Shown here one piece after another: positions 1 to 30,556 of a stretch of 32,000 nucleotides of DNA. The stretch spans positions 13,292 to 45,291 of the forward strand of contig JAZOOX010000022.1 of assembly GCA_045655245.1 (NCBI GenBank), written 5' to 3'. The position numbers and the translations under genes were made by a program. Below the pieces are notes generated by a model. That model had not been told where the DNA came from. It did not search any database and saw only the letters and a program-made list of their open reading frames with translations. Origin of the DNA: Clostridia bacterium (lineage in GTDB: Bacteria > Bacillota > Clostridia > RGIG8785). Each line of letters opens with the position of its first letter. Position 1 is the stretch's first letter.

Positions 1-500
1 TCGAGCCTGATAAGTCTGCCCGTCCCTTAGCGACGATGCTGACCGCCAGCATGGACACCAACGATTTCTTTACCGAAGCACATCCCAAGCTTCGTCCTGT
101 AGAAAGCCCGACGGCGGGTGTCTTCTTATCGGGTACCTGCCAGGGTCCCAAGGATATTCCGGAAACGGTTTCCCAGGCGTCTGCCGCCGCTGCAAAGGTC
201 ATCGGCCTTTTGGTGAAAGACAAACTGACAGGAAACCCCTGTATTGCAAGTTCCAATGAGCAAATGTGTAACGGATGCTCCTCCTGCGAACGGGTTTGCC
301 CCTACGGTGCTATCACCTACGCAGACAAAGAGTTCCGTATGCCTGATCGTACCACTTTGGTACGCCGCGTAGCCCAAGTCAATCCTGCGGTCTGCCAGGG
401 TTGCGGTGCTTGTACCGTAGCCTGCCCCTCGGGTGCGATGGATTTGCGTGGCTTTGCAAGTAATCAGATTATGGCGGAGGTGGATGCAATATGCAAGTAA
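1..500 (+). CDS. HdrA-like FAD/Fe-S oxidoreductase, C-terminal part (5' end is upstream of the window)
   Basis: The frame is open from nt 3 to the stop at 498-500. HPKLRPVESPTAGVFLSGTCQGPKDIPETVSQASAAAAK matches the conserved HdrA C-terminal FAD-domain motif. Two 4Fe-4S motifs follow: CNGCSSCERVCP and CQGCGACTVACP. Confidence 0.75.
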   Translation, partial: EPDKSARPLATMLTASMDTNDFFTEAHPKLRPVESPTAGVFLSGTCQGPKDIPETVSQASAAAAKVIGLLVKDKLTGNPCIASSNEQMCNGCSSCERVCPYGAITYADKEFRMPDRTTLVRRVAQVNPAVCQGCGACTVACPSGAMDLRGFASNQIMAEVDAICK

Positions 501-925
501 ACGGATACAAACCTTTGATCGTTGCCTTTTGTTGCAACTGGTGTTCCTATGCAGGTGCCGATCTGGCGGGAAACAACCGTCTGAACTATCCTGCAGATGT
601 TAAAATCATCCGCGTTCCCTGTTCCTGCCGTGTCAACCCCATGTTCATCCTCCGTGCGTTCCAGCGCGGTGCCGACGGGGTTATCAACTGTGGTTGCCAC
701 CCCGGTGACTGCCACTACACCTCGGGGAACTACTACACCCGCCGTCGTATGGCTCTGCTCTTCTCGATGCTGGATTATCTGGGCATCGAACGGGAGCGCA
801 CCCGTGTTGAATGGGTCTCTGCGGCAGAAGGTGCTAAGTTCGCCGCTACGATGAACGATTTTGCCGAGAAAGTAGCCGCTCTGGGCGAGAATAAACGATT
901 GGAGGATTTACGATGCAAAAAGTAA
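491..925 (+). CDS. mvhD: MvhD/FlpD (FlxD)-like [2Fe-2S] electron-transfer subunit
   Basis: FCCNWCSYAGADLAG, IRVPCSCRVNP and GADGVINCGCHPGDCHY are the FlpD/MvhD signature. GGAGG at 477-481 precedes ATG 491. The start overlaps the upstream stop by 10 nt. Confidence 0.85.
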   Translation: MQVNGYKPLIVAFCCNWCSYAGADLAGNNRLNYPADVKIIRVPCSCRVNPMFILRAFQRGADGVINCGCHPGDCHYTSGNYYTRRRMALLFSMLDYLGIERERTRVEWVSAAEGAKFAATMNDFAEKVAALGENKRLEDLRCKK

Positions 926-1902
926 GCCGTGACGCGCTGGTTGAAAAAGCGGTCGCAATGCTTCGTGACGACAAGGTTTGCGCAGTCCTCGGTTGGCGGA
1001 AAGGTGCTTTTGACTACGACGTCACTCCTTCCCTCTTCACCGATGCCGATGATTTGGAAAACAACTTTGTTTGGAACGATTTTTGCGGCGCAAACCTCTC
1101 AAAGTATCTTGTAGCAAAAACCCGCAAGGCAGAAGGAAAGATTCTGGTTTTCTTAAAGCCCTGCGACACCTACAGTTTTAACCAACTGTTAACCGAACAT
1201 CGCTTTGACCGGGAAAAGGTCTATGCCGTCGGCGTTCCCTGCAACGGCATGGCAGACATCCGCAAGATCAAAGACCTTTGCGGCGAAGGCATTGCCTCCA
1301 TCACCTGTGACGGTGACGGTCTTTCGGTCGAAACCTTATACGACGGTAATAAGACCCTGGCCCTTGCCGATGTACTGGCAGAACGTTGCATCTCCTGCAA
1401 GAGCAAGAAGCACGTTGCCTTTGACGAGTTGTTGGGCGAAACGGGTGAAGTTACCGAATCCAACCGTTTTGACGAAGTAGCACGTTTGGAAAAGATGTCC
1501 GCAGACGAGCGGTTTGACTTCTGGCAAAACGAGCTCTCTCGTTGCATCCGTTGCAACGCCTGCCGTGACGTCTGCCCCGCCTGTACCTGTGAAAAGTGCG
1601 TCTTTGACAATCCCGCATCGGGAGTCGAAAACAAGGCGGCGGCAAACAGTTTTGAAGAAAAGCTTTTCCACGTCATTCGTGCATTCCATGTTGCAGGTCG
1701 CTGTACCGACTGCGGCGAATGCTCCCGCGTTTGCCCTCAACAGATCCCCCTGCACCTGTTAAATCGCAAGTTCATCCGTGATATTGACTCCTTCTATGGG
1801 GAATATCAGGCGGGTGCTGAAGTAGGCTCCCGTGCGCCGCTGGTGAACTACACCGAGGACGATTTAGAGCCGTCCGAAGTATTTGAAGGGAGGGGCGAAT
1901 GA
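913..1902 (+). CDS. Fe-S protein of the HydB/AsrA type (FlxC/FlxB-like), 2x[4Fe-4S]
   Basis: Contains ILVFLKPCD plus CIRCNACRDVCPACTCEKC and CTDCGECSRVCP. GGAGG at 901-905 precedes the ATG. The start overlaps the mvhD stop by 13 nt. It is paralogous to the next ORF. Confidence 0.6.
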   Translation: MQKVSRDALVEKAVAMLRDDKVCAVLGWRKGAFDYDVTPSLFTDADDLENNFVWNDFCGANLSKYLVAKTRKAEGKILVFLKPCDTYSFNQLLTEHRFDREKVYAVGVPCNGMADIRKIKDLCGEGIASITCDGDGLSVETLYDGNKTLALADVLAERCISCKSKKHVAFDELLGETGEVTESNRFDEVARLEKMSADERFDFWQNELSRCIRCNACRDVCPACTCEKCVFDNPASGVENKAAANSFEEKLFHVIRAFHVAGRCTDCGECSRVCPQQIPLHLLNRKFIRDIDSFYGEYQAGAEVGSRAPLVNYTEDDLEPSEVFEGRGE

Positions 1903-2930
1903 TGCGTAAGTGTGAATTATCAGCAATGGATGCCCTGTTTGCCAAGATTGCAGCAGACGCTACCCTTTATCTCCCTGTAGACAATGAAACGGGCAAGGCT
2001 TCCTTCCAGAAGTGGGAAGCAGGCAAGGTGTGGAGCGATGCGCTGACCACCGTAAAAAGCCCCAAAGAGTTCTTCTTCCCCCAGATGGAGGACCTGATGG
2101 CATTTAAAACTGCAGGGAAAGCCATCGAACTGATTGATACCCGCTCCGAATCGGAAGATTTTGTAGTCTTTGGTGTCCGTGCTTGCGACGCCAAGAGTCT
2201 GGACGTTTTGGATCTGGTCTTTTTGACCGAGCCAAGAGACAGTTACTACGCCAACCGTCGGGAACATGGTACGGTCGTCACCTTGGCTTGTACCCGCCCT
2301 GCCGAGACCTGCTTCTGTCAGACCTTCGGGATTGACGCAGCAGACCCCCAAGGCGACCTGTCCCTCTGGAAAACCGAAACCGAAGTTTATTTCAAAGCCA
2401 ACACCCCCAAAGGTGAAGCACTGTTGAAGAAATTAGAAGGGCTGACCATTGAAGCGGATGACTCTGCTGTTTTGGAACAGAAAGAACAGATTCGTCAAGT
2501 ACTGAGCAAACTGCCCTTAAAGGACCTGACCACCGACGGGTTTGGTGGCGGAAAGACCGAAGCGCTCTTTGACCGTCCCGAATGGAAGGCCTTGTCCGAA
2601 TCCTGCCTGGGTTGCGGCACCTGTACTTTTGTCTGCCCCACCTGCCAGTGCTACGACATCAAGGACTTTAACACGGGTAACGGGGTTGTACGGTTCCGTT
2701 GCTGGGATTCTTGCATGTACTCCGACTTTACCAAGATGGCACACGGTAACAACCGCCTGACCCAGACCGAACGGTTCCGTCAGCGGTTTATGCACAAACT
2801 GGTCTACTTCCCCGAAAACAACGACGGAATGTTCAGTTGCGTCGGTTGCGGTCGCTGTCTGGCATCCTGTCCGATCTCGATGAATATTGCCAAAGTAATG
2901 AAGACGCTGGGAGGAAACGAAAATGAATAA
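1899..2930 (+). CDS. Fe-S protein, sulfhydrogenase beta / anaerobic sulfite reductase A-like (FlxB/FlxC-like)
   Basis: Contains FVVFGVRACDAKSLDVLDLVF plus CLGCGTCTFVCPTCQCYD and CVGCGRCLASCP, the typical AsrA/HydB layout. An ATGA start/stop overlap links it to the upstream gene. Confidence 0.65.
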   Translation: MMRKCELSAMDALFAKIAADATLYLPVDNETGKASFQKWEAGKVWSDALTTVKSPKEFFFPQMEDLMAFKTAGKAIELIDTRSESEDFVVFGVRACDAKSLDVLDLVFLTEPRDSYYANRREHGTVVTLACTRPAETCFCQTFGIDAADPQGDLSLWKTETEVYFKANTPKGEALLKKLEGLTIEADDSAVLEQKEQIRQVLSKLPLKDLTTDGFGGGKTEALFDRPEWKALSESCLGCGTCTFVCPTCQCYDIKDFNTGNGVVRFRCWDSCMYSDFTKMAHGNNRLTQTERFRQRFMHKLVYFPENNDGMFSCVGCGRCLASCPISMNIAKVMKTLGGNENE

Positions 2931-3756
2931 CATCCAAGACCCGTTGATGCCCCATATCGGCGTGATTACCGATGTCCGCATTGACACCCCCGATATCAAG
3001 ACCTTCCGCGTGGTTACCCCCGACGGAAAAAAGGCCTTTGACCATCGCCCCGGTCAGTGCGCCATGCTCTCCATCCCCGGCGTGGGCGAGGCGATGTTCT
3101 CCATCACCTCCTCCCCCACCAACGAGGAGTTTATGGAGTTCTCGATTAAAAAGTGCGGTTGCGTCACCGACTGGCTCCACCAAGCGGAAGTCGGTCAACA
3201 GTTGACCATCCGCGGACCTTACGGCAACCCCTTCCCCGTAGACACCGAGTTTGCGGGAAAGAATATGCTCTTTATCGCCGGCGGTGTCGGTCTTGCACCC
3301 CTCCGCTCGGTCATCAACTACTGCCGTCACTACCGCGACCGTTATGGTTCCATTGACATTGTATACGGTTCCCGCAGCAAGGACGATTTGCTGGACTATC
3401 AGGAAATCATCGACGAGTGGGCAACCGACAGCGGTGTGAACGTTCACCTGACCATCGACAACCCCCAGGAGGGCTGGGACGGTCATGTAGGGTTTGTTCC
3501 CAGTTATGTCAAAGAACTGGGCTTTTCCACTGACAAGACCGCCGTTCTTTGCGGTCCGCCCATTATGATTAAGTTCACTTTAGAAGGGTTGCTGGAGCTG
3601 GGCTTTGACAAGACCCAGGTTTACACCACCCTGGAACTGAAGATGAAATGCGGCATCGGCAAGTGCGGTCGTTGCAATGTCGGTTCCAAGTACGTCTGCA
3701 AAGACGGTCCTGTTTTCCGTTTTGACGAGCTGGACGAGTTGCCCGACGAGTATTGA
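2923..3756 (+). CDS. FAD/NAD(P)H-binding oxidoreductase with C-terminal [2Fe-2S] (HydG/AsrB/PyrK-like, FlxA-like)
   Basis: Shows the ferredoxin-reductase fold (RPGQCAMLSIPGVGEAMFSI, MLFIAGGVGLAPLRS) and a C-terminal CGIGKCGRCNVG...CKDGPVF cluster motif. The start overlaps the upstream gene by 8 nt. Confidence 0.75.
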   Translation: MNNIQDPLMPHIGVITDVRIDTPDIKTFRVVTPDGKKAFDHRPGQCAMLSIPGVGEAMFSITSSPTNEEFMEFSIKKCGCVTDWLHQAEVGQQLTIRGPYGNPFPVDTEFAGKNMLFIAGGVGLAPLRSVINYCRHYRDRYGSIDIVYGSRSKDDLLDYQEIIDEWATDSGVNVHLTIDNPQEGWDGHVGFVPSYVKELGFSTDKTAVLCGPPIMIKFTLEGLLELGFDKTQVYTTLELKMKCGIGKCGRCNVGSKYVCKDGPVFRFDELDELPDEY

Positions 3757-3774
3757 TGAAAAGGAGATAAGACT

Positions 3775-4449
3775 ATGGAAAATATGGTAAACATTTTTCT
3801 GTTCGGAAAGAAATACCAAGTGCCCGAAAATTTGACCATTATGCGGGCAATGGAGTATGCGGGATACCAGTTGGTTCGCGGTTGCGGTTGCCGTAACGGC
3901 TTCTGCGGCGCCTGTGCCACCATCTACCGCATCCACGGTCAGCAGGAGTTAAAGTCCTGCCTGGCTTGTCAGACCAAGGTTGAAGAGGGGATGTACATTG
4001 CGACCTTGCCCTTCTTCCCGTTGGTCAAACAGGTGTACGATGTCAACACGGTCCGTCCCACCGACGCGATCATGATGCAGTTGTACCCCGAAATTTATGC
4101 TTGTATCGGTTGCAATGCTTGCACCAAGAGCTGTACCCAGGAACTGAACGTTATGCAGTACATTGCATACGCTCAGCGAGGGGATTTTGAGAAATGCGCC
4201 GAAGAGTCTTTTGACTGTGTTATGTGTGGCGTTTGCTCCTCTCGTTGCCCTGCAGGGATTTCCCATCCTCAGGTTGCCATGCTGGCTCGCCGCTTAAACG
4301 GCAAGTACCTGGCACCCAAGTCTGCTCACGTCAGCGACCGTGTACAGGAAATCAAGGACGGTACCTTTACCGACCTGATTGAAGCACTGATGCAAAAACC
4401 CATCGAGGAAATCAAAGAACTCTACAACAACCGAGATATCGAGAAATAA
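3775..4449 (+). CDS. succinate dehydrogenase/fumarate reductase iron-sulfur subunit-like protein
   Basis: The N-terminal 2Fe-2S motif is CRNGFCGACA...C. It is followed by CIGCNACTKSC and CVMCGVCSSRCP, arranged as in SdhB/FrdB. AAGGAG sits 8 nt upstream of the ATG. Confidence 0.7.
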   Translation: MENMVNIFLFGKKYQVPENLTIMRAMEYAGYQLVRGCGCRNGFCGACATIYRIHGQQELKSCLACQTKVEEGMYIATLPFFPLVKQVYDVNTVRPTDAIMMQLYPEIYACIGCNACTKSCTQELNVMQYIAYAQRGDFEKCAEESFDCVMCGVCSSRCPAGISHPQVAMLARRLNGKYLAPKSAHVSDRVQEIKDGTFTDLIEALMQKPIEEIKELYNNRDIEK

Positions 4450-4462
4450 GGAGGGAAATGCC

Positions 4463-6058
4463 ATGTATTCTGAACAGTTTCAAGAATCCTTAAAGAAGGT
4501 TGAAGCCGCTCGCGAGGCAAACATCGCATTAGAGCCCGCACGTATGACGGCACAACAGAAAGAAGACTTATTGGCGGAGTACCATCCCGACTATAAGCAA
4601 GGCGAGTTTGACACCTTAAAAATCGGCCCCAACGCAGGCGAAAAAGTCCCCGTTGAACTGGCTAAAATGTTACAGGCACACAGCCGCATCAAGGCATCGG
4701 ATGTAGACCTGACCACCCCCGACTATGACGTTGATGTACTGATCATCGGCGGTGGCGGTGCAGGCGCTTCGGCGGCAATCGAAGCTCACGAAGCAGGCGC
4801 CAACGTTATGATTGTTACCAAGCTCCGTATCGGTGATGCCAACACCATGATGGCAGAAGGCGGTATTCAGGCGGCCGATAAACCCAACGACTCCCCCGCC
4901 ACCCACTTTGTAGATGCTTTCGGCGGCGGTCACTATGCCGCAAAGCGGGAACTCTTGTCCAAACTGGTTTGCGACGCTCCCGAAGCCATTCTGTGGCTGA
5001 ACGAACTGGGTGTCGAGTTTGACAAAGACGCTGACGGTACGATGGTTACCACCCATGGCGGCGGTACTTCCCGCAAGCGGATGCATGCGGCGAAGGACTA
5101 CTCGGGCGCAGAGATTATGCGTACCCTCCGTGACGAAGTATTGAACCGCAGGATTCCTGTTGTTGACTTTACCGCAGCAATTGAGCTGATTTTGGACGAC
5201 CAAGGCAAGGCCGCAGGTGCCGTCCTGATGAATATGGAGACCCACGAGCTGTTGGTTGCTCGTGCCAAGACCGTTATCATCGCTACCGGCGGTGCAGGTC
5301 GTATGCACTATCAAGGCTTCCCCACCTCCAACCACTACGGCGCAACTGCCGACGGTCTGGTACTGGGTTACCGTGTGGGTGCAAAGTTACTGTACGCCGA
5401 AACTTTACAGTATCATCCCACCGGTGCCGCATTCCCCGAGCAGATTTTCGGTGCACTGGTAACCGAAAAGGTCCGTTCTTTGGGCGCTAAACTGATCAAC
5501 GTCAACGGCGAAGTCTTCATGCACCCCTTAGAGACCCGTGACGTTTCCGCCGCATCCATCATCCGCGAGTGCTCCACCCGCGAAAACGGTGTCAACACCG
5601 GCAGTGGCTACGGTGTATGGTTAGACACCCCCATGATTGAAAAAATCGGCGGTGAAGGCACCATCGAGCGCCGCATCCCCGCAATGATGCGTATGTTTGA
5701 AAAGTACGGCATCGACATCCGCAAAGAACCCATCCTGGTCTACCCCACCCTGCACTACCAAAACGGCGGCTTAGACATCACTGCCGACTGTATGACCACC
5801 AACGTTGAAAACCTCTTTGTTGCAGGCGAAGCCGTTGGCGGTATCCACGGCAGAAACCGTCTGATGGGTAACTCTTTGTTAGACATCATCGTATTCGGTC
5901 GCAGTGCAGGTCAGAACGCCGCCGCAAAGGCAAAGGAAACCACCGTTGGAACTCTGACCTTAGACCATATTGAAAAGTTTGAAAACGAAATCGCCGCAGC
6001 CAAGATTGACACCGATTTGGTCTCTCCCAAACTGTTGCCCGATTATCGCAACAAATAA
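4463..6058 (+). CDS. soluble fumarate reductase/succinate dehydrogenase flavoprotein-like FAD protein (FAD_binding_2 family)
   Basis: Carries the dinucleotide fold DVLIIGGGGAGASAAIEA and the motifs ATGGAGRMH, LQYHPTG, TEKVRS, YPTLHYQNGG and GRNRLMGNSLLDIIVFGR. These align to E. coli FrdA motifs. AAGGAGG precedes the ATG. Confidence 0.75.
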   Translation: MYSEQFQESLKKVEAAREANIALEPARMTAQQKEDLLAEYHPDYKQGEFDTLKIGPNAGEKVPVELAKMLQAHSRIKASDVDLTTPDYDVDVLIIGGGGAGASAAIEAHEAGANVMIVTKLRIGDANTMMAEGGIQAADKPNDSPATHFVDAFGGGHYAAKRELLSKLVCDAPEAILWLNELGVEFDKDADGTMVTTHGGGTSRKRMHAAKDYSGAEIMRTLRDEVLNRRIPVVDFTAAIELILDDQGKAAGAVLMNMETHELLVARAKTVIIATGGAGRMHYQGFPTSNHYGATADGLVLGYRVGAKLLYAETLQYHPTGAAFPEQIFGALVTEKVRSLGAKLINVNGEVFMHPLETRDVSAASIIRECSTRENGVNTGSGYGVWLDTPMIEKIGGEGTIERRIPAMMRMFEKYGIDIRKEPILVYPTLHYQNGGLDITADCMTTNVENLFVAGEAVGGIHGRNRLMGNSLLDIIVFGRSAGQNAAAKAKETTVGTLTLDHIEKFENEIAAAKIDTDLVSPKLLPDYRNK

Positions 6059-6071
6059 GGAGGCAATTATA

Positions 6072-7325
6072 ATGAATTTATTCGGCGGTGTCATTCCCGT
6101 AACGGGAATCTCATTCCTGATTCTTTTTGTATTTACCGTTTTGTTCGTCGGCTATGCCTTGGGACGGATCACCATCAAAGGTGTTTGCCTGGGCGATGCA
6201 GGTGTGTTCGTAATTGCCCTGCTGTTTGGCGCACTGTTTTACGAGCCCCTTGCCGCACAAATGACCTTCGACGGTGTGGACTTTACCGAAAAAGCTCTGA
6301 CCATCATCGAGAACTTGGGTTTGATTCTCTTCGTTACCTCGGTTGGATTTATCGCAGGACCTAAGTTCTTTGGGAATATGAAAAAGAACTTTAAGTCCTA
6401 TGTCCTGTTAGGGTTCATCATCATTTTGGCAGGCGGTCTGTCTGCCGTTGCCTGCATTTTCGCAGGGGAAGTCTTTGGCTACGGCTCTTCCATTACCGAG
6501 CAAGACGGGTTTGTGGCAATGATCGTCGGGTTACTGTCGGGGTCTTTGACCTCTACTCCCGCCTTCTCCGCCGCAAAAGCCACCGTTGCCGAGCAGTATA
6601 CCAGCCTGGTTTCGGTCGGTCACGGTATTGCCTACATTTTTGGCGTAATCGGCGTTGTCCTTTTTGTTCAGGTGATTCCCAAGCTGACCCGCGCCGACAT
6701 GGATGCCGAACGTGCTAAAATTGCCGGTCCTGCCGAAACAGAAGAAAAGAAGAGCACTGTTGGCAAACTCCTTTCGCTGGACGGACACGGCTTTGCCGCA
6801 TTTGCCCTTGCCGCAGTCTTAGGTACGATCGTCGGAAAAATTAAGATTCCGTTGTCTGCGGCGGGTCTGGACGGCACCTGTTTCTCGTTGACCACTACCG
6901 GCGGATGCCTTTTGGTATCCCTGCTCTTCGGCCACTTTGGCCGCATCGGCAAGGTAAACATAATGCCCGAAGGTCACCTTCTGAAAATCCTGCGGGAGCT
7001 GGGTCTGGTTTTCTTCCTGGTCGGCGCTGGTATCCCCGGCGGTGCAGAGTTCGTTGCCAACTTTGACATTATGTACTTTGTCTACGGAATCGTAATGACC
7101 GTCTGCCCCATGATCATCGGTTACCTTTTCGCAAAGTATGTTTTAAAACTTTCCTTGTTGAACAACCTGGGCTCTTTGACCGGCGGAATGACCTCCACCC
7201 CCGCGCTGGGCACCTTAATTGGTGTTTCCAAGACCGAGGATGTAGCTGCCGCTTACGCCGCTACCTATCCCATCGCTTTGATTGCGGTGGTACTGGTTTC
7301 CCAGTTCTTGATCATTCTGTTTTAA
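6072..7325 (+). CDS. AAE-family (AspT/YidE/YbjL/SucE-type) transporter made of two Asp-Al_Ex repeats
   Basis: The protein is polytopic and hydrophobic. The repeat signature GRITIKGVCLGDAGVFVIALLFG appears in the N-terminal half, and GGCLLVSLLFGHFGRIG in the C-terminal half. I chose ATG 6072 because AAGGAGG lies at 6056-6062. The track start at 5970 overlaps the upstream gene. Confidence 0.7.
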   Translation: MNLFGGVIPVTGISFLILFVFTVLFVGYALGRITIKGVCLGDAGVFVIALLFGALFYEPLAAQMTFDGVDFTEKALTIIENLGLILFVTSVGFIAGPKFFGNMKKNFKSYVLLGFIIILAGGLSAVACIFAGEVFGYGSSITEQDGFVAMIVGLLSGSLTSTPAFSAAKATVAEQYTSLVSVGHGIAYIFGVIGVVLFVQVIPKLTRADMDAERAKIAGPAETEEKKSTVGKLLSLDGHGFAAFALAAVLGTIVGKIKIPLSAAGLDGTCFSLTTTGGCLLVSLLFGHFGRIGKVNIMPEGHLLKILRELGLVFFLVGAGIPGGAEFVANFDIMYFVYGIVMTVCPMIIGYLFAKYVLKLSLLNNLGSLTGGMTSTPALGTLIGVSKTEDVAAAYAATYPIALIAVVLVSQFLIILF

Positions 7326-7329
7326 CAAT

Positions 7330-7361
7330 AAAAAAACGCCCCGATTTGGGGCGTTTTTTTA
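7330..7361 (+). terminator. rho-independent terminator closing the hdr/flx/frd-like operon
   Basis: The stem is ACGCCCC-gattt-GGGGCGT, followed by a T7 run. An A-run precedes the stem. Confidence 0.85.
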
Positions 7362-7390
7362 TTGCAGTTTTAGCCAAAGGATGATACAAT
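7362..7390 (+). promoter_or_regulatory. putative sigma-70 promoter for the nitroreductase gene
   Basis: TTGCAG-N17-TACAAT lies about 22 nt upstream of the AGGAGGG RBS and ATG 7413. Confidence 0.4.
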
Positions 7391-7412
7391 GGTTTAAAAA
7401 GGAGGGATCAAC

Positions 7413-7934
7413 ATGGGATTCTTTACACTGGCAAAAGACCGTTACTCGGTACGGAAATTCAAACCCGAACATCTATCCAAGGAAGAGCTTGACACGATCA
7501 TAAAAGCAGGGATGGTGGCGCCTACGGGTTGCAACTTCCAGGCCTTTCGGATTTTGGTCATCAATGATGATGTGTCTGCGCCCAAGTTGGCTAAATGCAC
7601 CGACAGCCACTTTAACGCCCCTGCGGCGATGGTCGTCTGCTATCACAAAAACGAGTGTTGGTATCGCAAAAAATACGACGGCGAACCTTGCGGTGTTTTG
7701 GATGCCGCGATCGTGGGCACTCATTTAATGCTCCAAGCCCACGAAATCGGAGTGGGCAGTACCTGGGTGATGAGTTTTGACCCCGCCGCCTTACGCCGTG
7801 CCTACAACATCCCCGATGAATTAGAACCTGTAGTACTTTTGGTCATGGGACATCCTGCCGAGGATGCCGCTCCTGCACCTCAGCACGATGTATTTCGTCC
7901 CGTGGAGGATTTGGTTTATTACGACACCTTTTGA
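7413..7934 (+). CDS. nitroreductase family protein
   Basis: RYSVRKFKPEHLSKEELDTIIKAGMVAPTGCNFQAFRILV is a typical N-terminus of the FMN nitroreductase family. The length of 173 aa fits. Confidence 0.8.
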   Translation: MGFFTLAKDRYSVRKFKPEHLSKEELDTIIKAGMVAPTGCNFQAFRILVINDDVSAPKLAKCTDSHFNAPAAMVVCYHKNECWYRKKYDGEPCGVLDAAIVGTHLMLQAHEIGVGSTWVMSFDPAALRRAYNIPDELEPVVLLVMGHPAEDAAPAPQHDVFRPVEDLVYYDTF

Positions 7935-9763: not shown

Positions 9764-11449
9764 TTAATTCAACCTCGCTTCAATCATTTTAGTTAGGTAA
9801 TCTGCTTTTTTAGTAATCAGGGCATGATTCTCTCCTTCAATCATTACCCGCACACAAGGCTCGGTACCCGAGGGGCGCACCAGCACACGACCGCGGTCGG
9901 CCAGTTCCTCTTCTACACGAGCGATTTCTTCTTGGATAACGGGGTCGGAGAGACACTCCTTTTTCTTGGTGTTTGCCACCTTGGCGTTTATAATCACCTG
10001 GGGCATAGGAGTAAACCCGTCTGCCAGCTCGGAGAGCTTTTTACCGCTGCGTCGGAGTACGGTCAACAACTGCAACGCAGTGCAAAGTCCGTCCCCCGTA
10101 GTATTACTATCTAAGAAAATGATATGTCCCGACTGTTCCCCGCCGATACAATAGCCCGAACGGACCATTTCCTCTAACACATAGCGGTCGCCCACATCGG
10201 TACGGACAATGTTGATGCCCCGCTCCTTTGCGGCGAGAATCAGACCCAGATTGGTCATGACCGTGGTTACCAGAGTGTCTTTTTTCAACAAGCCACGGGA
10301 TTTTAAGTCGTCGGCACAGATGAACATAATCTTATCACCATCCACCAGACGACCGGTTTCGTCTACTGCCAGTACACGGTCAGCATCGCCGTCAAAGGTC
10401 AACCCCAAGTCAACGTCAATTTTACGGACATATTCGCAAAATTCCCGAGGATGGGTGGAACCGCAGTTGGCGTGGATGTTGGTACCGTTGGGGTGATTAT
10501 GTACCGCATAGACATCGGCACCCAGGTCGACCAGCACCCGCACGGTGGTTTCATACGATGCACCGTTGGCACAGTCCACGGCGATACGCATTCCGCGAAG
10601 GTCGCCTGTAATCGTGCTTTTAGCGTGGTCAATATACTCCTGCGCTGCAGTCTTTAAGACTTCGGTATGGCCGACGGCATCCCCTGTAGGCAGTACCGGG
10701 TCTTCCGATTCATCCAGTACGATCCGTTCGATACGATGTTCCAATCGGTCAGACAGTTTATAGCCGTTGGCATTAAAAATCTTGATACCGTTAAACTCGG
10801 CGCTGTTGTGGGAAGCAGAAATCACAACGCCTGCATCGGCACCGTGCTTACGGGTCAAATATGCTACGGCAGGAGTGGGTATAACACCCAACTGCACTAC
10901 CTTTGCCCCGGCAGAGCAAAGTCCCGCAATCAACGCACCTTCCAGCATATCCCCCGAAAGACGGGAGTCCTTGCCAATAAACACTGTAGGTTTGTGAGAC
11001 AGTTCGCGGGTCAGGACATACGCACAGGCACGACCGATTGCCAGCGCCATTTCGCAAGTGAGTTCGGAATTGGCAACGCCCCGCACTCCATCGGTGCCAA
11101 AGAGGCGTCCCACTTTGGAGGAGTCCCCGGCAAAAAGAGCGTCTAAGCGCTTGGCATGAAACCCTGCGCGGTTCTTTTGCTCGGATTGCAAAAACTTGCG
11201 GTGGTCCCCGTCATAGTTATTGCGGATTTCCTCGGCACAGTCGTCGTAACGAACGCGAATGTCAGTCAGTCCCAAAAGAAAATCAGCTGAAACGCGAAAG
11301 AGCAACGACATCTGACGGATGGAATCGTGGTCAGGCTGACTGGATCCCGACTCCCACATGGCAACGGTGGAGCGGGAAACACCCAGTTTTTCGGCCAATC
11401 GTTGTTGGCTTAAGTTGGCTTCTTTACGAAGCAGTTTCATTGGATTCAT
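9764..11449 (-). CDS. glmM: phosphoglucosamine mutase with an in-frame N-terminal XRE-family HTH domain (561 aa)
   Basis: ATG 11449 is preceded by AGAGGTG. Residues 1-63 (LRKEANLSQQRLAEKLGVSRSTVAMWESGSSQPDHDSIRQMSLLFRVSADFLLGLTD) form a Cro/C1-type HTH. From residue 113 the sequence is canonical GlmM: GRLFGTDGVRGVAN and the active site SASHNSAEFNGIK. An internal GTG at 11113 would give a standard 449-aa GlmM. There is no stop codon between the two parts. Confidence 0.8.
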   Translation of the reverse strand: MNPMKLLRKEANLSQQRLAEKLGVSRSTVAMWESGSSQPDHDSIRQMSLLFRVSADFLLGLTDIRVRYDDCAEEIRNNYDGDHRKFLQSEQKNRAGFHAKRLDALFAGDSSKVGRLFGTDGVRGVANSELTCEMALAIGRACAYVLTRELSHKPTVFIGKDSRLSGDMLEGALIAGLCSAGAKVVQLGVIPTPAVAYLTRKHGADAGVVISASHNSAEFNGIKIFNANGYKLSDRLEHRIERIVLDESEDPVLPTGDAVGHTEVLKTAAQEYIDHAKSTITGDLRGMRIAVDCANGASYETTVRVLVDLGADVYAVHNHPNGTNIHANCGSTHPREFCEYVRKIDVDLGLTFDGDADRVLAVDETGRLVDGDKIMFICADDLKSRGLLKKDTLVTTVMTNLGLILAAKERGINIVRTDVGDRYVLEEMVRSGYCIGGEQSGHIIFLDSNTTGDGLCTALQLLTVLRRSGKKLSELADGFTPMPQVIINAKVANTKKKECLSDPVIQEEIARVEEELADRGRVLVRPSGTEPCVRVMIEGENHALITKKADYLTKMIEARLN

Positions 11450-11467
11450 TTTGTCACCTCTTCTTTC

Positions 11468-11497
11468 ATTATAGGTTTTGTTGCCCAAAAGAGTCAA
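11468..11497 (-). promoter_or_regulatory. sigma-70 promoter of the HTH-glmM-glmS operon
   Basis: On the minus strand, TTGACT (11497-11492) is followed by N18 and TATAAT (11473-11468). This leaves only about 15 nt of leader before the RBS and ATG. Confidence 0.65.
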
Positions 11498-11531
11498 CGG
11501 ATTCTTGACATTTTCGGTCAAGTTTGTTGAC
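11493..11531 (-). promoter_or_regulatory. two operator-like inverted repeats, GTCAA-N5-TTGAC and GTCAA-N7-TTGAC
   Basis: Perfect 5-bp half-sites lie at 11517-11531 (N5 spacer) and 11493-11509 (N7 spacer). Each is preceded by the direct repeat AATGTCAA. The promoter-proximal half-site is the -35 hexamer itself. Confidence 0.5.
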
Positions 11532-11544
11532 ATTATTATTTCCC

Positions 11545-11573
11545 AAAAAAAGAAAGGGTCGGAATCGACCCTT
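11545..11573 (-). terminator. rho-independent terminator after the LCP gene
   Basis: On the minus strand, GGGTCG-attc-CGACCC is followed by TTTCTTTTTTT. Confidence 0.75.
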
Positions 11574-12509
11574 TTATTCGTTTTCGGGAATTTGTACGGG
11601 ATCATCCGAGAAGTAAATTGCACGGATGTCTGCCATTTCCTGAATATGTTTTTCGCCGCGGACAACATAGGAAACACCGCCGATGTCCTGTGCCGTTGAG
11701 GGCAACATAAACATATACACACGGTCGGTGGAGATTTTGGGTGCCAGCATAGCGTACTTGGTGATCTGCGCCATAGAAAGGCTGGTGTCCACTGCTTCGG
11801 TCAGCACTTTTGCAATATTGTCCACCTTCCCCAGGTAGCGCAGGTTGACCTTTTGGTCGATGAAGCATTTGATGAAGTATTGTTGTGCCGAAACGCGGCC
11901 CAGGTCACCGTTGACATAACCGCTTCTGAACCGGACAAACTGTTCAGACTTTTCGCCGTTTAAAACCTGGCGGCCTGCGTCAATATGGATATGCAAGTTT
12001 TGAATGGGATCGTCATAGTGCATCCCCGGTTGGGGTACGTCTACTTCAACCCCCCCTAAAATGTCAATAACCTCGCGGAAGCTGGAAGTATCCAGCTTCA
12101 CGAAATGGTGAATGGGCAAGCCCGTAATTTCACGGACGGCACGGATTAATATTTCTTCTTCCGAGTCCACCTTTCCCTGTTTGAACAGCGAAACGCCGAC
12201 CCCGTAAGCTTCGTTGATTTTACGATAGCGACCCTCGATTAACAAGCGGGTATCCCGAGGGATGGAGATGGTGGAAAGGTCCCCGTTATCGGTATTTAAA
12301 CTGGCTAAAATAATGGTGTCAGTCAAGGAAGCAACCCTGTCCTTCCCAAAGACCAGGACGTTGACGCGGTTGGACTCGATGGGGTCGCCGCCGATCATCA
12401 CATTGCCGACCTGCGGGGTCAAATGCAACCCCAAAAGGATACCGCCGCCAATGGCCAGAAACACGCACATTGCCATTGCTATTGTCTTGAAAAATACACG
12501 CATATTCAT
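11574..12509 (-). CDS. LCP (LytR-CpsA-Psr) family cell-envelope polymer transferase
   Basis: Has an N-terminal TM helix followed by NVLVFGKDRVASLTDTIILASLNTDNGDLSTISIPRDT, the LCP core motif. Confidence 0.85.
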   Translation of the reverse strand: MNMRVFFKTIAMAMCVFLAIGGGILLGLHLTPQVGNVMIGGDPIESNRVNVLVFGKDRVASLTDTIILASLNTDNGDLSTISIPRDTRLLIEGRYRKINEAYGVGVSLFKQGKVDSEEEILIRAVREITGLPIHHFVKLDTSSFREVIDILGGVEVDVPQPGMHYDDPIQNLHIHIDAGRQVLNGEKSEQFVRFRSGYVNGDLGRVSAQQYFIKCFIDQKVNLRYLGKVDNIAKVLTEAVDTSLSMAQITKYAMLAPKISTDRVYMFMLPSTAQDIGGVSYVVRGEKHIQEMADIRAIYFSDDPVQIPENE

Positions 12510-12601: not shown

Positions 12602-13102
12602 TTAATTCGAAGATATCTTTTTCAGGATATAAGGGGCAACTTCGTCCTGGGCGATCTTTAGGGTATAAGACAGTTCCTGGTGGAGTTGATGCTCCCCTTC
12701 TTTAAGGATCCCCTCTTCCACCGCCCAAAGGCGTTTGCCCGCCTGCTCTTTTTCTTCCCGCTTGCGGTGCAGGGCAATGATCAGCCGTAAAAGTTCTAAT
12801 TGGTCGCCTTTTTTTAAGATTTGTCTAAAGTACTGCTGCCGTTCCCGGTCGTTTTCGATCCAGGAAAGGGGTGCACTGTCCGCCTCTTCCAACAGACGGT
12901 CCACCCGTGAGGAGTCCAAAAGGGGTCGGAGTTTCTTTTCCGCAGTGTCTACGGGCAGGAAAAGCAGAGTGCGGTCGGTTTCGTCTACCGAGCGGAGACG
13001 GTAGTAGTCCCGGGTGTTACCCACCACTGTCTTTGATTCGATTTCTTCAATAATACACACCCCTACGCCCAGATAAAACACGCGTTCATTCTTCCGAAAC
13101 AT
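12602..13102 (-). CDS. CarD/CdnL family transcriptional regulator
   Basis: MFRKNERVFYLGVGVCIIEEIESKTVVGNTRDYYRL forms a CarD_CdnL_TRCF N-terminal domain, followed by a helical C-terminal domain. I chose ATG 13102 because GGGAG lies 8 nt upstream. The track start at 13120 is a TTG. Confidence 0.8.
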   Translation of the reverse strand: MFRKNERVFYLGVGVCIIEEIESKTVVGNTRDYYRLRSVDETDRTLLFLPVDTAEKKLRPLLDSSRVDRLLEEADSAPLSWIENDRERQQYFRQILKKGDQLELLRLIIALHRKREEKEQAGKRLWAVEEGILKEGEHQLHQELSYTLKIAQDEVAPYILKKISSN

Positions 13103-13180: not shown

Positions 13181-13636
13181 TCAATTCAGATAGGCAATCA
13201 TTGCATTTAAATAAGCCGCAAACGCCAACCAGATCAGGTACGGGATAAACAGATACCCCGCCAAAGGACGGCATTGATACAACGAGATTGCCGTCCAGAG
13301 TGCCGCCCCAAACAAAAGCAGTAACAGCACAAAGGATGCCCACAGGGCTTGTGCGTTAAAGAAGAGCAAGGGCCACAAGAAATTTAACAGCAACTGGACA
13401 CAAAAGAGCAACAAACTCTTGACACATCCCCGATTATAGGCAATGACGGCGGAGATGCCCATCAGCGTGTACAAGATCGACCACACAATGGGGAACAGAA
13501 TGGGTGGCGGCGCCAGAGGCGGTTGCACCACAGTCTCGTAAAAATCAGTGCCGCCCCGGGTCAATAGTGCGGCAAGCCCTCCTGCCACCAAGGGCAGAAT
13601 AAACCAAAAAATGCGAAGATAGGTTTGTTTTTTCAT
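13181..13636 (-). CDS. tspO: TspO/MBR tryptophan-rich sensory protein
   Basis: Five TM helices with PPLAPPPILFPIVWSILYTLMGISA and NFLWPLLFF motifs. ATG 13636 has AAGGAG 8 nt upstream. Confidence 0.85.
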   Translation of the reverse strand: MKKQTYLRIFWFILPLVAGGLAALLTRGGTDFYETVVQPPLAPPPILFPIVWSILYTLMGISAVIAYNRGCVKSLLLFCVQLLLNFLWPLLFFNAQALWASFVLLLLLFGAALWTAISLYQCRPLAGYLFIPYLIWLAFAAYLNAMIAYLN

Positions 13637-13692
13637 ACTTTTGTCTCCTTTCCCTTTATTGTATGAATTTTCCTGAAATTTATACAGAGGAA

Positions 13693-13721
13693 TTGACAAG
13701 CGCACCATGGCATAGTATAAT
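13693..13721 (+). promoter_or_regulatory. consensus sigma-70 promoter for the FMN riboswitch and ribU
   Basis: TTGACA (13693-13698)-N17-TATAAT (13716-13721). Confidence 0.8.
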
Positions 13722-13723: not shown

Positions 13724-13845
13724 AAGATGTCTTTGGGGCGGGGTGCAATTCCCCACCGGCAGTAACAGCCTGCGAGCCGCTTTTGCGGTTGACTCGGTGT
13801 GATTCCGAGGCCGACGGTACAGTCCGGATGAGAAAAGACGGCAGG
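13724..13845 (+). promoter_or_regulatory. FMN riboswitch (RFN element)
   Basis: The conserved RFN core is present: GGGGCGGGGTGCAATTCCCCACCGGC.GTA...AGCC.GCGAGC...GGTTGACTCGGTGTGATTCCGAGGCCGACGGTACAGTCCGGATGAGA. P1 pairs GTCTTT with AAAGAC. Confidence 0.92.
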
Positions 13846-13854
13846 AGTGTTTGT

Positions 13855-13882
13855 GTCCGTCCCCCGTGGACGGACTTTTTTA
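13855..13882 (+). terminator. FMN-riboswitch expression-platform terminator
   Basis: GTCCGTCC-cccgt-GGACGGAC is followed by T6, immediately upstream of the ribU RBS (GGAGG at 13885-13889). Confidence 0.85.
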
Positions 13883-13895
13883 TTGGAGGCTTATA

Positions 13896-14486
13896 ATGAA
13901 AAACAAATCCCTGAACTTACTGGTCAAACTGGCAATGCTCTCGGCGGTGGCAATGGCACTGATGCTCTTTGAATTCCCTCTGCCATTTATCGCGCCGCCC
14001 TTTTACGAAATCGACCTCAGCGAGGTCCCTGTTCTGATTGGGGCGTTTGCATTCGGTCCTTGGGCGGGTGCCATCGTTGAAGGCGTAAAAATTCTTTTGA
14101 ACCTGCTGATTAACGGCACCGTTACCGCAGGGATTGGGGAGCTTTCCAACTTTGTTCTGGGTGTGGTCTTCGTCCTGCCTGCCGCCTGGGTCTATCAGAA
14201 AAACAAAACGAAAAAAGGTGCCCTGTACGGATTGCTTACGGGGACGGTCCTGCTGTTGGTACTGGGTTGCTTCATTAACGCCTTTGTTATGCTCCCTGCT
14301 TACGGCAACGCCTTTGGAATGCCTATTTCCGCCTTTGTGGATATGGCAGCGCAGATTCATCCCTCCATTGACACGGTATTGGAATTCGTCCTCTTTTGCG
14401 TTTTGCCTTTTAATCTGATCAAGGCAGTGCTGGTCTCGGTCATTACCCTTTTGATTTACAAAAAACTTTCCCCCGTTCTCCATTGA
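13896..14486 (+). CDS. ribU: ECF-transporter S component for riboflavin (RibU-like)
   Basis: A 196-aa six-TM protein (FEFPLPFIAPPFYEIDLSEVPVLIGAFAFGPWAG) sitting directly behind an FMN riboswitch. ATG 13896 is 6 nt after GGAGG. Confidence 0.8.
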   Translation: MKNKSLNLLVKLAMLSAVAMALMLFEFPLPFIAPPFYEIDLSEVPVLIGAFAFGPWAGAIVEGVKILLNLLINGTVTAGIGELSNFVLGVVFVLPAAWVYQKNKTKKGALYGLLTGTVLLLVLGCFINAFVMLPAYGNAFGMPISAFVDMAAQIHPSIDTVLEFVLFCVLPFNLIKAVLVSVITLLIYKKLSPVLH

Positions 14487-17535: not shown

Positions 17536-19203
17536 TTAGAATAGTCCGGTAATCACACCGTTATCATCCACGTCGATTTTCTCGGCGGCGGGGACAGGCG
17601 GCAGACCGGGCATGGTCATAATATCGCCGGTCAAAACAACCACAAAACCTGCGCCTGCAGAAACACGGACGTTTTTAATGGTGACGGTAAAGCCTTCGGG
17701 CGCACCCAGCTTGGTGGCGTCGTCCGAAAAACTGTACTGGGTTTTTGCCATACAAACAGGCAGGTTGCCGTAACCCAGTTCGGTGAGCCGTACCAGTTGC
17801 TTTTTGGCAGCAGGGAGGATGGAGATGCCGTCTCCGCCGTAAATCTTTTGAACGACAGCGGTAATCTTTTCCTCTAAAGACAGGTCGGTATCGTAACTGT
17901 AGGCAAAGTGATTTTCCTGTTCACAAAGGCGAACCACCTCTTCTGCCATAGCGATGCCGCCGTTGCCGCCTTCAGCCCATACATTGGACAAAACGACGTT
18001 AACGCCCAGCGCTTTACACTGTTCAATGATGCATTCGATTTCGCGGTCGGTGTCGGTGGGGAAGCGGTTGACCGCTACAACCGATGGGAGACCGTAAACA
18101 TCTTTAATATTGGACACGTGACGGAGCAGATTGGGGATGCCCTTTTCCAACGCTTCGACATTCTCGGTGCCCAGTTCGGTCTTGGCAAGACCACCGTGCA
18201 TTTTAAGGGCGCGGACCGTAGCCACCACCACGACTGCCGATGGGGTCAGACCTGCGGCGCGGCATTTGATATCCAAAAATTTCTCAGCGCCCAAGTCAGC
18301 ACCAAAACCAGCCTCGGTAATAACATAATCGCCCAGTTTCATTGCCATGGTAGTAGCGATAACCGAGTTACAGCCGTGAGCAATGTTGGCAAAAGGACCG
18401 CCGTGAACAAAGGCGGGAGTGCCTTCCAGGGTTTGTACCAGGTTGGGTTTTAAGGCGTCTTTTAAAAGTGCGGTCATGGCACCTTGTGCATTTAACTGCC
18501 CTGCGGTCACCGGCTCGTCCTGATAGGTGTAGCCGACGATGATGCGGGAAAGACGTTCTTTTAAGTCACGAATGGAGGTTGCCAGACAGAGCACTGCCAT
18601 AATCTCGGAGGCAACGGTGATGTCGTACCCGTCCTCCCGGGGGACGCCATTGACCCGACCGCCCAGGCCGTCGGTTACATGGCGAAGCTGGCGGTCGTTC
18701 ATGTCCACACAGCGTTTCCAGGTAATGCGACGGGGATCAATGTTGAGTTTGTTGCCCTGGTAGATATGGTTGTCCAGCATAGCGGCAAGAAGGTTGTTCG
18801 CTGCGCCGATGGCGTGGAAGTCACCCGTAAAGTGGAGGTTGATCTCCTCCATGGGGACGACCTGTGCGTAACCGCCACCTGCCGCACCGCCCTTAACACC
18901 GAAAACAGGGCCTAGGGACGGCTCACGCAGGGCGACCATTACGTTTTTGCCGATTTTACGGAGACCGTCTGCCAAGCCAATGGTGGTTGTGGTCTTGCCC
19001 TCCCCTGCAGGGGTGGGGGTAATGGCGGTCACCAAAATCAGTTTGCTGTCCCGCTCCGGCAGATCGCGGAGCAGGGACAGGTCTACTTTTGCCTTGTTAG
19101 AGCCATAGGGTTCCAGGTATTTGGGGTCAATGTTTGCCGTTGCGGCAATCTCGGTAATGGGTTTTAATGTCACAGACTGAGCAATTTCAATATCCGTTTT
19201 CAT
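17536..19203 (-). CDS. fhs: formate--tetrahydrofolate ligase
   Basis: MKTDIEIAQ... and [16 protein letters not shown] are FTHFS signatures. The length of 555 aa fits. Confidence 0.95.
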
Positions 19204-24181: not shown

Positions 24182-24195
24182 CAGATGTTCTCCTA

Positions 24196-25386: not shown

Positions 25387-25389
25387 CTC

Positions 25390-26109: not shown

Positions 26110-26110
26110 A

Positions 26111-27747: not shown

Positions 27748-27750
27748 TTT

Positions 27751-29172: not shown

Positions 29173-29244
29173 ATTATGCCTCCGATAGTATAGTAAGAAA
29201 TGACGGTAGCAGAGCGGGGTGCTCTGCTACCAAAAAGTATTGAA

Positions 29245-29925: not shown

Positions 29926-29939
29926 GGGACAACACTCCT

Positions 29940-30444: not shown

Positions 30445-30556
30445 AAAAAAGATAAGGGCAGTCCTATCCACAAAGGATAAGACTGCCCAGACGGTCGGCA
30501 TATAGGCTCTCTTTGCTCCCTTGTGGGTACTTCCACTCTTTCCGTCAGTCACAAAA
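30445..30556 (-). promoter_or_regulatory. ZTP (pfl-motif) riboswitch with overlapping intrinsic terminator
   Basis: The minus strand reads GUGACUGACGGAAAGAGUGGAAGUACCCACAAGGGAGC...GCCGACCGUCUGGGCAGUC. It contains the conserved UGACUGACGG and CCGACCGUCUGGGC elements of ZTP riboswitches. A terminator follows: GGGCAGTCCTATCC-acaaa-GGATAAGACTGCCC plus a T-run (30488-30445). The terminator's 5' arm reuses the GGGCAGUC of the aptamer. Confidence 0.88.

Follow-up and report, generated by a model that had tools for sequence, protein, structure and literature searches.

A fumarate reductase-like pair encoded in one conserved operon with an Flx-Hdr module in gut and rumen Clostridia, and its possible coupling to ferredoxin

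We analysed a 32,000-nucleotide (nt) stretch of DNA from a member of the Clostridia (assembly GCA_045655245.1, contig JAZOOX010000022.1, positions 13,292–45,291 of the forward strand), hereafter the window, which begins with an Flx-Hdr electron-transfer module followed by a fumarate reductase-like pair, FrdB and FrdA, and a permease of the AAE family. Positions 1–7361 hold eight co-directional open reading frames (ORFs) in one series on the + strand (Table 1). ORF calling reproduced exactly the junctions described in an earlier reading of this DNA (the first-pass annotation): overlaps of 10, 13, 4 and 8 nt, then gaps of 18, 13 and 13 nt. A GGAGG-like Shine–Dalgarno (SD) sequence lies 6–10 nt 5′ of every start codon. 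The permease start was taken as the ATG at 6072, which has such a sequence; the longest ORF would begin at the TTG at 5970. The one strong terminator, placed by the annotation at 7330–7361, is the hairpin that closes the series. This hairpin is not listed by a consensus terminator scan, which found only 5–7 bp stems within the genes and gave a total of 25 candidates, not clearly above the 15.6 ± 4.3 of shuffled sequence. Family searches with the antisense ORFs of the region gave no match.

Table 1. Genes and terminator of the operon segment at the start of the window
Feature	Position	Strand	Description
hdrA 3′ end	1–500, frame from nt 3	+	last 165 codons, C-terminal 2x[4Fe-4S] ferredoxin domain; cut by left window edge
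mvhD/flxD	491–925	+	[2Fe-2S] adaptor to HdrA flavin; PF02662 FlpD 183 bits; VhuD 3.6e-38
flxC-like	913–1902	+	Fe-S protein, 329 amino acids (aa), two CxxCxxCxxxC motifs; Fer4_8/Fer4_9/Fer4_17
flxB	1899–2930	+	HydB/AsrA-like 2x[4Fe-4S], 343 aa; Fer4_22 104 bits
flxA	2923–3756	+	NAD(P)H/flavin adenine dinucleotide (FAD)/[2Fe-2S], 277 aa; FAD_binding_6 + NAD_binding_1 + DHODB_Fe-S_bind
frdB-like	3775–4449	+	224 aa, [2Fe-2S] + two CxxCxxCxxxC; Fer2_4 + Fer4 dicluster
frdA-like	4463–6058	+	flavoprotein, 531 aa; FAD_binding_2 229 bits
AAE permease	6072–7325	+	short, 417 aa, two Asp-Al_Ex halves; PF06826 183 bits
intrinsic terminator	7326–7364	+	17-bp stem, -24.9 kcal/mol, T run after

Domain calls made by profile searches against Pfam and NCBIfam bore out the product types assigned in the first-pass annotation, including its Flx/HdrA parts list. 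It was also correct that genes for a membrane anchor are lacking; none was found in the window or in 80 related loci.

The gene series extends upstream in relatives. An FrdA 96% identical to that of the window (P0002) lies on a contig, L088, that is colinear with window positions 1–7934 at 84.6% nt identity and has the downstream genes in common. Here the unit reads mdh-like gene, fumC, hdrB (with CCG motifs), hdrC, hdrA (664 aa), mvhD, flxC, flxB, flxA, frdB, frdA and AAE permease, with a promoter-like site at 382–409, and is flanked by strong terminators at 137–163 and 12841–12876, the second being the equivalent of the window terminator. Four further relatives (L001–L004; 87% identical) have the same layout. 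Positions 1–7361 of the window are the distal eight genes of one 12-gene unit, mdh-fumC-hdrB-hdrC-hdrA-mvhD-flxC-flxB-flxA-frdB-frdA-AAE, and their membership in a conserved Flx-Hdr-Frd succinate operon can be stated with high confidence.

When one genome per species was scanned, FrdA relatives turned up in at least 597 species-level genomes. Synteny was scored by tblastn of the twelve proteins in the best 80 of these (FrdA 82–88% identical), a gene being counted only where the flank suffices. All 80 are Clostridia, mostly metagenome-assembled genomes of Oscillospiraceae, Acutalibacteraceae and Ruminococcus, from human, ruminant and chicken gut, and they include the isolate Yeguia hominis NSJ-40. 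The proposed check of gene order across Clostridia came out clearly: the order is retained in all 80 wherever there is enough flank. Every redox gene is present throughout, with hdrB in 53/53 loci, hdrC in 54/54, hdrA in 55/55, mvhD in 63/63, flxC in 65/65, flxB in 68/68, flxA in 70/70 and frdB in 75/75; fumC is found in 49 of 51 and mdh in 44 of 51. The window itself has only the last 165 residues of HdrA from the full Hdr set. The annotation had the Frd pair standing in place of hdrBC. In the flanked relatives hdrB and hdrC lie directly 5′ of hdrA, so the pair is not a stand-in for HdrBC and most likely sits behind it. The presence of hdrBC upstream had been named, together with a promoter and terminator belonging to frd, as grounds for rejecting the hypothesis of a bifurcating complex. 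The former is seen in relatives, but no separate frd signals accompany it, and the idea survives; scans of the window and of L088 gave no credible candidate for an internal terminator or promoter that would separate frdBA from flx.

The sequences of the redox subunits are nearly fixed. Between positions 1–7325 of the window and 5539–12843 of L088 they are 91–100% identical in amino acids at 85–92% nt identity; examples are the HdrA C terminus, which is identical over 165/165 residues to the end of the L088 protein at 89.8% nt identity, and FlxA (99.3% at 92.3%). Purifying selection on the redox subunits is extreme. For the AAE permease, identity to the L088 protein falls to 69.7%.

The two genes at the head of the unit indicate its metabolic setting. 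The fumC product of relatives passes the class II fumarase equivalog (713 bits against a cutoff of 665); aspartase, a candidate suggested by the AAE family of the permease, was rejected since the aspA models fail their cutoff. The first gene is of the lactate/malate dehydrogenase (LDH/MDH) family, and the residue at the specificity position equivalent to LDH Gln102 is Arg (GVARKPG or GLARKPG) in 26/26 loci in which the motif was found. Arg at this position is the classic malate dehydrogenase signature, and a lactate dehydrogenase was rejected on this motif, though the L-LDH model also scores above its cutoff. The upstream mdh and class II fumarase genes point to fumarate as the likely substrate of FrdBA. 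By gene content, the 12-gene unit appears to be the reductive C4 branch (oxaloacetate to malate to fumarate to succinate) in Clostridia that live by fermentation in gut and rumen.

The Hdr and Flx subunits can be compared with those of characterised complexes. The HdrA fragment matches the HdrA2 model (143 bits, 8e-42, model positions 492–641). Full-length HdrA of relative L001 aligns over residues 3–661 (687 bits) with 5ODC_A, the structurally characterised bifurcating HdrA of Methanothermococcus, in an alignment that covers the ferredoxin domains, both inserted and C-terminal. Both CCG motifs are intact in the HdrB proteins of the relatives, with ten Cys in the patterns Cx31CCx34CxxC and Cx39CCx34CxxC, and HdrC has two four-Cys motifs. 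FlxA matches AsrB (7e-59), HydG (2e-58) and the gamma subunit of sulfhydrogenase I (PDB 9nez_C, 9e-57); it would be the electron entry point of the module. FlxB matches the sulfhydrogenase beta subunit ShyB (1.6e-52), AsrA (1.6e-43) and sulfhydrogenase I beta (PDB 9nez_B, 3.7e-47). FlxB and FlxC had been described as two paralogous HydB/AsrA-like proteins. This holds for the type of FlxB, but FlxC is only 23% identical to it, over 97 aa, and among solved structures it comes nearest to FdhB of the methanogen Fdh-Hdr complexes (8rvu_E, 7e-23), a closer match than sulfhydrogenase beta. The methanogen MvhAGD-HdrABC and Fdh-Hdr complexes (5ODC, 7BKB, 8RVU) resemble the present module in an HdrA that aligns end to end, in the MvhD adaptor and in the likeness of FlxC to the docking subunit FdhB. 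They differ at both ends of the electron path: the donor here would be NADH, entering at FlxA, in place of H2 or formate, and the proposed acceptor fumarate through FrdBA rather than CoM-S-S-CoB, the heterodisulfide of coenzymes M and B.

FrdB and FrdA resemble the E. coli FrdABCD and SdhCDAB enzymes in the flavoprotein fold, the active-site residues and the pairing with a [2Fe-2S] plus dicluster ferredoxin subunit, but lack the His for covalent FAD, the C-terminal domain and the anchors, have a [4Fe-4S] in place of the [3Fe-4S] cluster and have an additional N terminus. In FrdB a fourth Cys (C151) occupies the [3Fe-4S] site of E. coli SdhB and FrdB, which lies next to the quinone site. In FrdA the N-terminal extension of 88 aa is conserved; there is no match to Succ_DH_flav_C (PF02910), and the chain stops about 45 aa past the FAD domain, without the C-terminal helical domain. 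We compared active-site residues in an alignment (A1) with E. coli FrdA, SdhA and NadB. FrdA residues H318, T334, E335, R338, H431 and R466 are invariant in this alignment and correspond to H232, T244, E245, R287, H355 and R390 of E. coli FrdA. The full set for binding fumarate or succinate and for proton transfer is therefore retained (two His, two Arg and the Thr-Glu pair). Asn127 stands at the position of the covalent-FAD His (H45 of E. coli SdhA, H44 of FrdA). E. coli FrdA His44 mutants, in which the FAD is non-covalent, keep fumarate reduction and lose succinate oxidation. With no NAD(P)H domain and no CCG domain of its own, FrdAB needs a donor module. Taken together, these features characterise FrdBA as a probable soluble, quinone-independent, one-way fumarate reductase core without an electron-input domain of its own. 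A 727-aa database protein (P0122) has an FrdB-like N terminus (Fer2_4 and 2x[4Fe-4S]) fused to an FrdA-like part with the N-terminal extension, 56% identical to FrdA of the window; this fusion may be a gene-call artefact.

Two alternatives concern the reaction at this site. The pair could act on a substrate other than fumarate, resembling L-aspartate oxidase or reducing some other enoate or dicarboxylate, and the permease would then move aspartate or a similar compound. NadB models do score well on FrdA (TIGR00551, 266 bits, behind the generic SdhA/FrdA model at 278 bits), reductases for urocanate and other enoates are known among the FAD_binding_2 enzymes, and the AAE family includes the aspartate:alanine antiporter. 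Yet all NadB models stay under their cutoffs (453 for TIGR00551), and FrdA has Gly at the position of NadB E121, the residue that binds the Asp amino group in that enzyme; L-aspartate oxidase identity was rejected on these two grounds. The four dicarboxylate-binding His and Arg residues are all kept, the same operon encodes the class II fumarase and malate dehydrogenase in the proportions of relatives given above, and the permease falls far short of the AspT equivalog and is dispensable. We consider a non-fumarate substrate very improbable. Fumarate had also been the likely acceptor in the first-pass annotation, and the site residues, the Gly for E121, the top-scoring TfrA model and the fumC and Arg102-type mdh genes of the relatives' operons all agree with this.

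The second alternative keeps the substrate pair and reverses the direction: succinate and reduced ferredoxin would together yield NADH (confurcation), as in syntrophic oxidisers of propionate or succinate. Flavin-based bifurcating enzymes are reversible in principle, and a role of Hdr-like proteins in the succinate oxidation of Syntrophobacter has been discussed (PMC5947623). Against this, a flavin held non-covalently, as implied by the Asn that replaces His, is unfavourable to succinate oxidation; the operon is carried by saccharolytic Clostridia of gut and rumen and also contains mdh, fumC and an exporter-type permease; and Pseudoclostridium thermosuccinogenes, which has a similar operon, makes succinate while expressing it highly. 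An oxidative role is hardly credible on these grounds.

We propose instead that electrons run from NADH to fumarate and ferredoxin in one bifurcating reaction. FlxA, with its FAD and [2Fe-2S] cluster, would oxidise NADH, and the clusters of FlxB and FlxC and then the [2Fe-2S] of MvhD/FlxD would carry the electrons to the HdrA flavin. There the pair would be split. One electron would go uphill to ferredoxin by way of the ferredoxin domains in HdrA. The other would go downhill, first to HdrC, then to the pair of non-cubane clusters in HdrB and the [4Fe-4S] and [2Fe-2S] clusters of FrdB, and finally to the non-covalently bound FAD of FrdA, where fumarate would be reduced irreversibly to succinate. 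Succinate would leave through the AAE permease or, in other lineages, the small membrane protein that occupies its slot. The net reaction would be 2 NADH + fumarate + 2 Fd(ox) → 2 NAD+ + succinate + 2 Fd(red), where Fd is ferredoxin. By our own estimate from standard potentials, taking two electrons from NADH to ferredoxin costs about 20–35 kJ. Reduction of fumarate by NADH releases more than this (−58.1 kJ/mol; PMC13147460), and the overall reaction would therefore stay exergonic; the thermodynamic argument of the first-pass annotation was sound in its logic.

Ferredoxin-coupled bifurcation along the path NADH → Flx → HdrA → HdrCB → FrdBA → fumarate is in our judgement probable, although well short of certain. 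The genes and their order, the signals for co-transcription, the cofactor motifs, the residues of the active site and the conservation of all these are observed; within this account we infer that the eleven soluble proteins may act in one complex, that HdrB would pass electrons to FrdB without a thiol, that ferredoxin would be co-reduced and that the permease would export succinate. A wider proposal we offer only tentatively, as a possibility rather than an expectation: that there is one complex with direct HdrB-to-FrdB transfer, that this would be the first Hdr module shown to serve a C=C bond instead of a disulfide, that it provides the main energy-conserving succinate route in hundreds of quinone-independent species of gut and rumen Clostridia, and that two unrelated exporters are interchangeable in it.

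Should ferredoxin-coupled bifurcation hold, part of the roughly 58 kJ/mol would be recovered as reduced ferredoxin, usable for H2 production or Rnf-driven ion pumping. This would explain how bacteria without quinone-linked fumarate respiration profit from making succinate, and it would add a new class of acceptor for HdrABC-type bifurcation. Succinate is a major metabolite of cross-feeding and host signalling in the gut and rumen, as well as a bioproduction target. With at least 597 species-level genomes, near-invariant redox subunits and at least one cultured carrier, Yeguia hominis NSJ-40, a biochemical test is practical.

The same genes could also encode a non-bifurcating NADH:fumarate reductase, a single complex in which Hdr-Flx merely wires NADH to FrdAB, ferredoxin stays unreduced and the excess free energy ends up as heat. 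Soluble fumarate reductases that use NADH are known, an example being the five-subunit enzyme of Hydrogenobacter thermophilus (PMC13147460), and reduction of ferredoxin by Flx-Hdr complexes has been shown by no assay. A further precedent comes from the relatives of FrdA. Outside the tight Clostridia clade the nearest full-length relatives are 44–56% identical, and a metagenome search with one of them (P0129) recovered a sister clade in which FrdA is about 45% identical to that of the window. In this clade frdB lies directly upstream of frdA in 55 of 60 loci, and a gene for a 418-aa NuoF-like protein, with a flavin mononucleotide (FMN) site and SLBB and NADH_4Fe-4S domains, lies directly downstream in 42 of 53 (for example L094 9366–12891 and L103 5893–15191). 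No Hdr or Flx genes were detected in the sister-clade loci. The neighbours of the triad in L103 include citrate synthase, two LDH/MDH-family genes and a 2-oxoacid:ferredoxin oxidoreductase. The frdB-frdA-nuoF-like triad looks like a simple three-subunit soluble NADH:fumarate reductase, and the sister clade supports fumarate and NADH as the probable general logic of the FrdBA core, with NADH as the ancestral donor.

The sister clade bears on the wiring alternative in both directions. It shows FrdBA paired with a single NADH module, as that alternative would have it; but if one NuoF-like subunit suffices for the NADH-to-fumarate wire, and does the same job elsewhere, then the seven-gene Hdr-Flx set is unlikely to be just a wire. 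A wire would also leave unexplained why a further seven genes, among them one for an HdrA of full length and with every ferredoxin domain, are kept under extreme purifying selection, and it would waste −58 kJ/mol in energy-limited fermenters. In P. thermosuccinogenes added H2 abolishes succinate formation, which its authors read as ferredoxin coupling (PMC7282089). We regard the non-bifurcating reading as unlikely, though by no means negligible. The H. thermophilus enzyme (Miura et al. 2008) and the triad share with the operon a soluble, NADH-linked, irreversible reaction and an AB core. They differ in their simple NADH input without HdrA or MvhD, hence in having no bifurcation site.

A different link between the two halves of the operon is suggested by archaeal thiol:fumarate reductase. 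Methanothermobacter TfrAB (Heim et al. 1998) is cytoplasmic and anchorless, and TfrA is the best model for FrdA (NF004900, 343 bits), although the score stays well below the cutoff of 718. TfrB combines an FrdB-like [2Fe-2S] region, an HdrC-like 2x[4Fe-4S] region and an HdrB-like CCG region in one chain, all of which are separate polypeptides in the operon, and it provides a map of the modules: FrdB matches TfrB residues 19–94, HdrC 133–219 and HdrB 262–487. Successive segments of TfrB are thus matched by FrdB, HdrC and HdrB, and the three polypeptides are therefore pieces of one known fumarate reductase subunit. The match of FrdB is confined to the TfrB N terminus (FrdB residues 12–87); its 224 aa are accounted for by [2Fe-2S] and 2x[4Fe-4S] domains, and neither Pfam searches nor alignment found a CCG domain in it, such domains being found in the separate HdrB.

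As in the archaeal pairing of Tfr with Hdr, Flx-Hdr and FrdAB could be two co-regulated enzymes joined by a diffusible thiol/disulfide, with a bifurcating Flx-Hdr reducing the disulfide and the thiol in turn reducing fumarate. HdrB retains both CCG motifs of a disulfide-reducing site, which would fit, as would the score of TfrA, and tfrAB is the name that Rubin-Blum et al. gave to the equivalent genes (PMC6315080). The CCG domain that FrdB lacks is, however, the thiol-oxidising site of TfrB, so FrdAB alone cannot use a thiol, and in none of the 80 loci does the operon include a gene for a thiol cofactor or a DsrC-like protein. The Tfr donors are coenzyme M (CoM-SH) and coenzyme B (CoB-SH), which the bacteria considered here are not known to make; more generally, synthesis of the two for such a purpose is not known in bacteria. 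The thiol-linked arrangement seems to us quite unlikely, and direct transfer from HdrB to FrdB within the bifurcating pathway remains our preferred account.

Several points weigh against that account. Association of Hdr-Flx with FrdAB in a complex is deduced from synteny only, and mdh, fumC, hdrB, hdrC and most of hdrA lie outside the window, their presence being deduced from relatives. To our knowledge every characterised HdrB reduces a disulfide, and direct transfer from HdrB to FrdB is without precedent. An AlphaFold2 model of FrdA (31-sequence alignment, members 85–96% identical) reached a pLDDT, the predicted local distance difference test score, of 61, too poor to support a fold search or to interpret the N-terminal extension. 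The permease, present in 54 of 80 loci overall, is missing from a third of relatives. Full-text literature searches returned proposals only, and no biochemical or structural proof for any member of the operon family. For FlxABCD-HdrABC complexes of any kind, too, the reduction of ferredoxin has so far only been proposed (Ramos et al. 2015, as cited in PMC7282089).

The place after frdA is where the operon varies. Over the 80 species loci it holds an AAE permease in 53, a membrane protein of about 105 aa in 22, both in one and neither in four. The AAE permease and the small protein are nearly mutually exclusive, which fits analogous roles. The small ORF is conserved (for example L051 11628–11954 and L065 11618–11941), does not occur in the window and has no Pfam match even at E = 10. 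The permease of the window passes TIGR01625 (130 bits against a cutoff of 72) and does not reach the AspT equivalog TIGR03802 (112 against 547); Pfam finds no TrkA_C central domain in it. It may be regarded as a putative succinate exporter or dicarboxylate exchanger. The annotation had placed the permease in the AAE family, which is confirmed, and treated it as co-encoded with the rest; with replacement by the small membrane protein in 22 loci, the transporter is a variable accessory and not a fixed part of the system.

The idea of a bifurcating Flx-Hdr-Frd system is not new and has been in print since 2019. Its clearest precedent is the 'succinate operon' of P. thermosuccinogenes, which consists of a fumarate hydratase, a seven-gene Flx-Hdr set, a two-gene fumarate reductase and a small hypothetical protein taken as a putative succinate transporter (Koendjbiharie et al. 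2020, PMC7282089). NADH-driven fumarate reduction coupled to ferredoxin was proposed for this operon in a 2019 preprint by Koendjbiharie & van Kranenburg, as cited in that paper (PMC7282089). Its gene lengths are given as 784, 325, 5348, 676 and 1603 nt, with a last gene of 250 nt, and all genes are expressed at thousands of FPKM (fragments per kilobase of transcript per million mapped reads) and change jointly, by about fourfold (PMC7282089). By order and size this is the same series of fumC, seven Flx-Hdr genes, two anchorless frd genes and an exporter slot as in our operon: RS03360 (784 nt) corresponds to HdrB (262 aa), RS03325 (676 nt) to FrdB (224 aa) and RS03320 (1603 nt) to FrdA (531–534 aa). 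There are three differences. The slot in P. thermosuccinogenes holds a protein of about 83 aa, the succinate transporter by its authors' guess, rather than the 417-aa AAE permease; the unit considered here includes mdh, which is not among the genes assigned to the succinate operon there; and P. thermosuccinogenes is a thermophile, whereas the carrier here is a gut or rumen member of the Oscillospirales.

Related arrangements have been described more widely. Rubin-Blum et al. 2019 found tfrAB and korABCD amid flxABCD-hdrABC in tubeworm symbionts and Thioflavicoccus mobilis and proposed an electron-shuttling complex that takes electrons from NADH to both fumarate and ferredoxin (PMC6315080), which a 2026 survey restates as bifurcation to fumarate and ferredoxin (PMC13147460). 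In gene content these clusters are like ours, with an AB-type soluble fumarate reductase amid Flx-Hdr genes. They belong, however, to Gammaproteobacteria with an autotrophic reverse tricarboxylic acid cycle and include 2-oxoglutarate:ferredoxin oxidoreductase, whereas the present setting is fermentative, with mdh, fumC and an exporter. A 2024 preprint associates HdrA with Sdh/Frd in Ruminococcus champanellensis. The FlxABCD-HdrABC complex of Desulfovibrio vulgaris (Ramos et al. 2015) has the same seven protein types as the operon, in the order flxABCD-hdrABC instead of hdrBCA-flxDCBA; its proposed acceptor is the DsrC disulfide, in ethanol metabolism, whereas here FrdBA is joined into the unit. 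Set against this literature, the first-pass annotation was largely right but incomplete, missing hdrBC, fumC and mdh upstream, and its central idea had been published before. The present analysis adds that the operon is widespread among Clostridia of gut and rumen, that its redox subunits hardly vary, that the residues of FrdBA argue for a quinone-independent fumarate reductase working in one direction, that two putative exporters alternate after frdA, and that a sister clade is linked to NuoF instead.

The rest of the window is ordinary housekeeping: glmS, glmM, lytR, carD, thrS, fhs, the pur operon and two riboswitches. Adjoining the operon, 87 nt past its end, is a 173-aa nitroreductase-family gene (7413–7934, +) with its own SD sequence, found at the same place in L088; L001–L004 have a divergent LysR-family regulator there. 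The ORF at 9764–11722 (−) encodes an HTH_3 domain (residues 95–148) followed by all four phosphoglucosamine/phosphoglucomutase domains. Such an HTH-GlmM fusion is unusual; the combination also occurs in L088, as one 561-aa gene.

An FMN riboswitch (13725–13843, +; 115 bits) lies directly 5′ of a gene for the S component of an energy-coupling factor (ECF) transporter (13851–14486, +), presumably a RibU-like riboflavin uptake protein. A TspO/MBR-family gene (13181–13708, −) is divergent from this unit. The second riboswitch, of the ZMP/ZTP class (30478–30562, −; 64.6 bits), precedes the purine operon (19218–30425, −), which comprises purE, purC, purF, purM, purN, an IMP cyclohydrolase-like gene, a purH-like gene, purD and purL. 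Just downstream of this operon, on the same strand, lies the gene for formate-tetrahydrofolate ligase (17536–19203).

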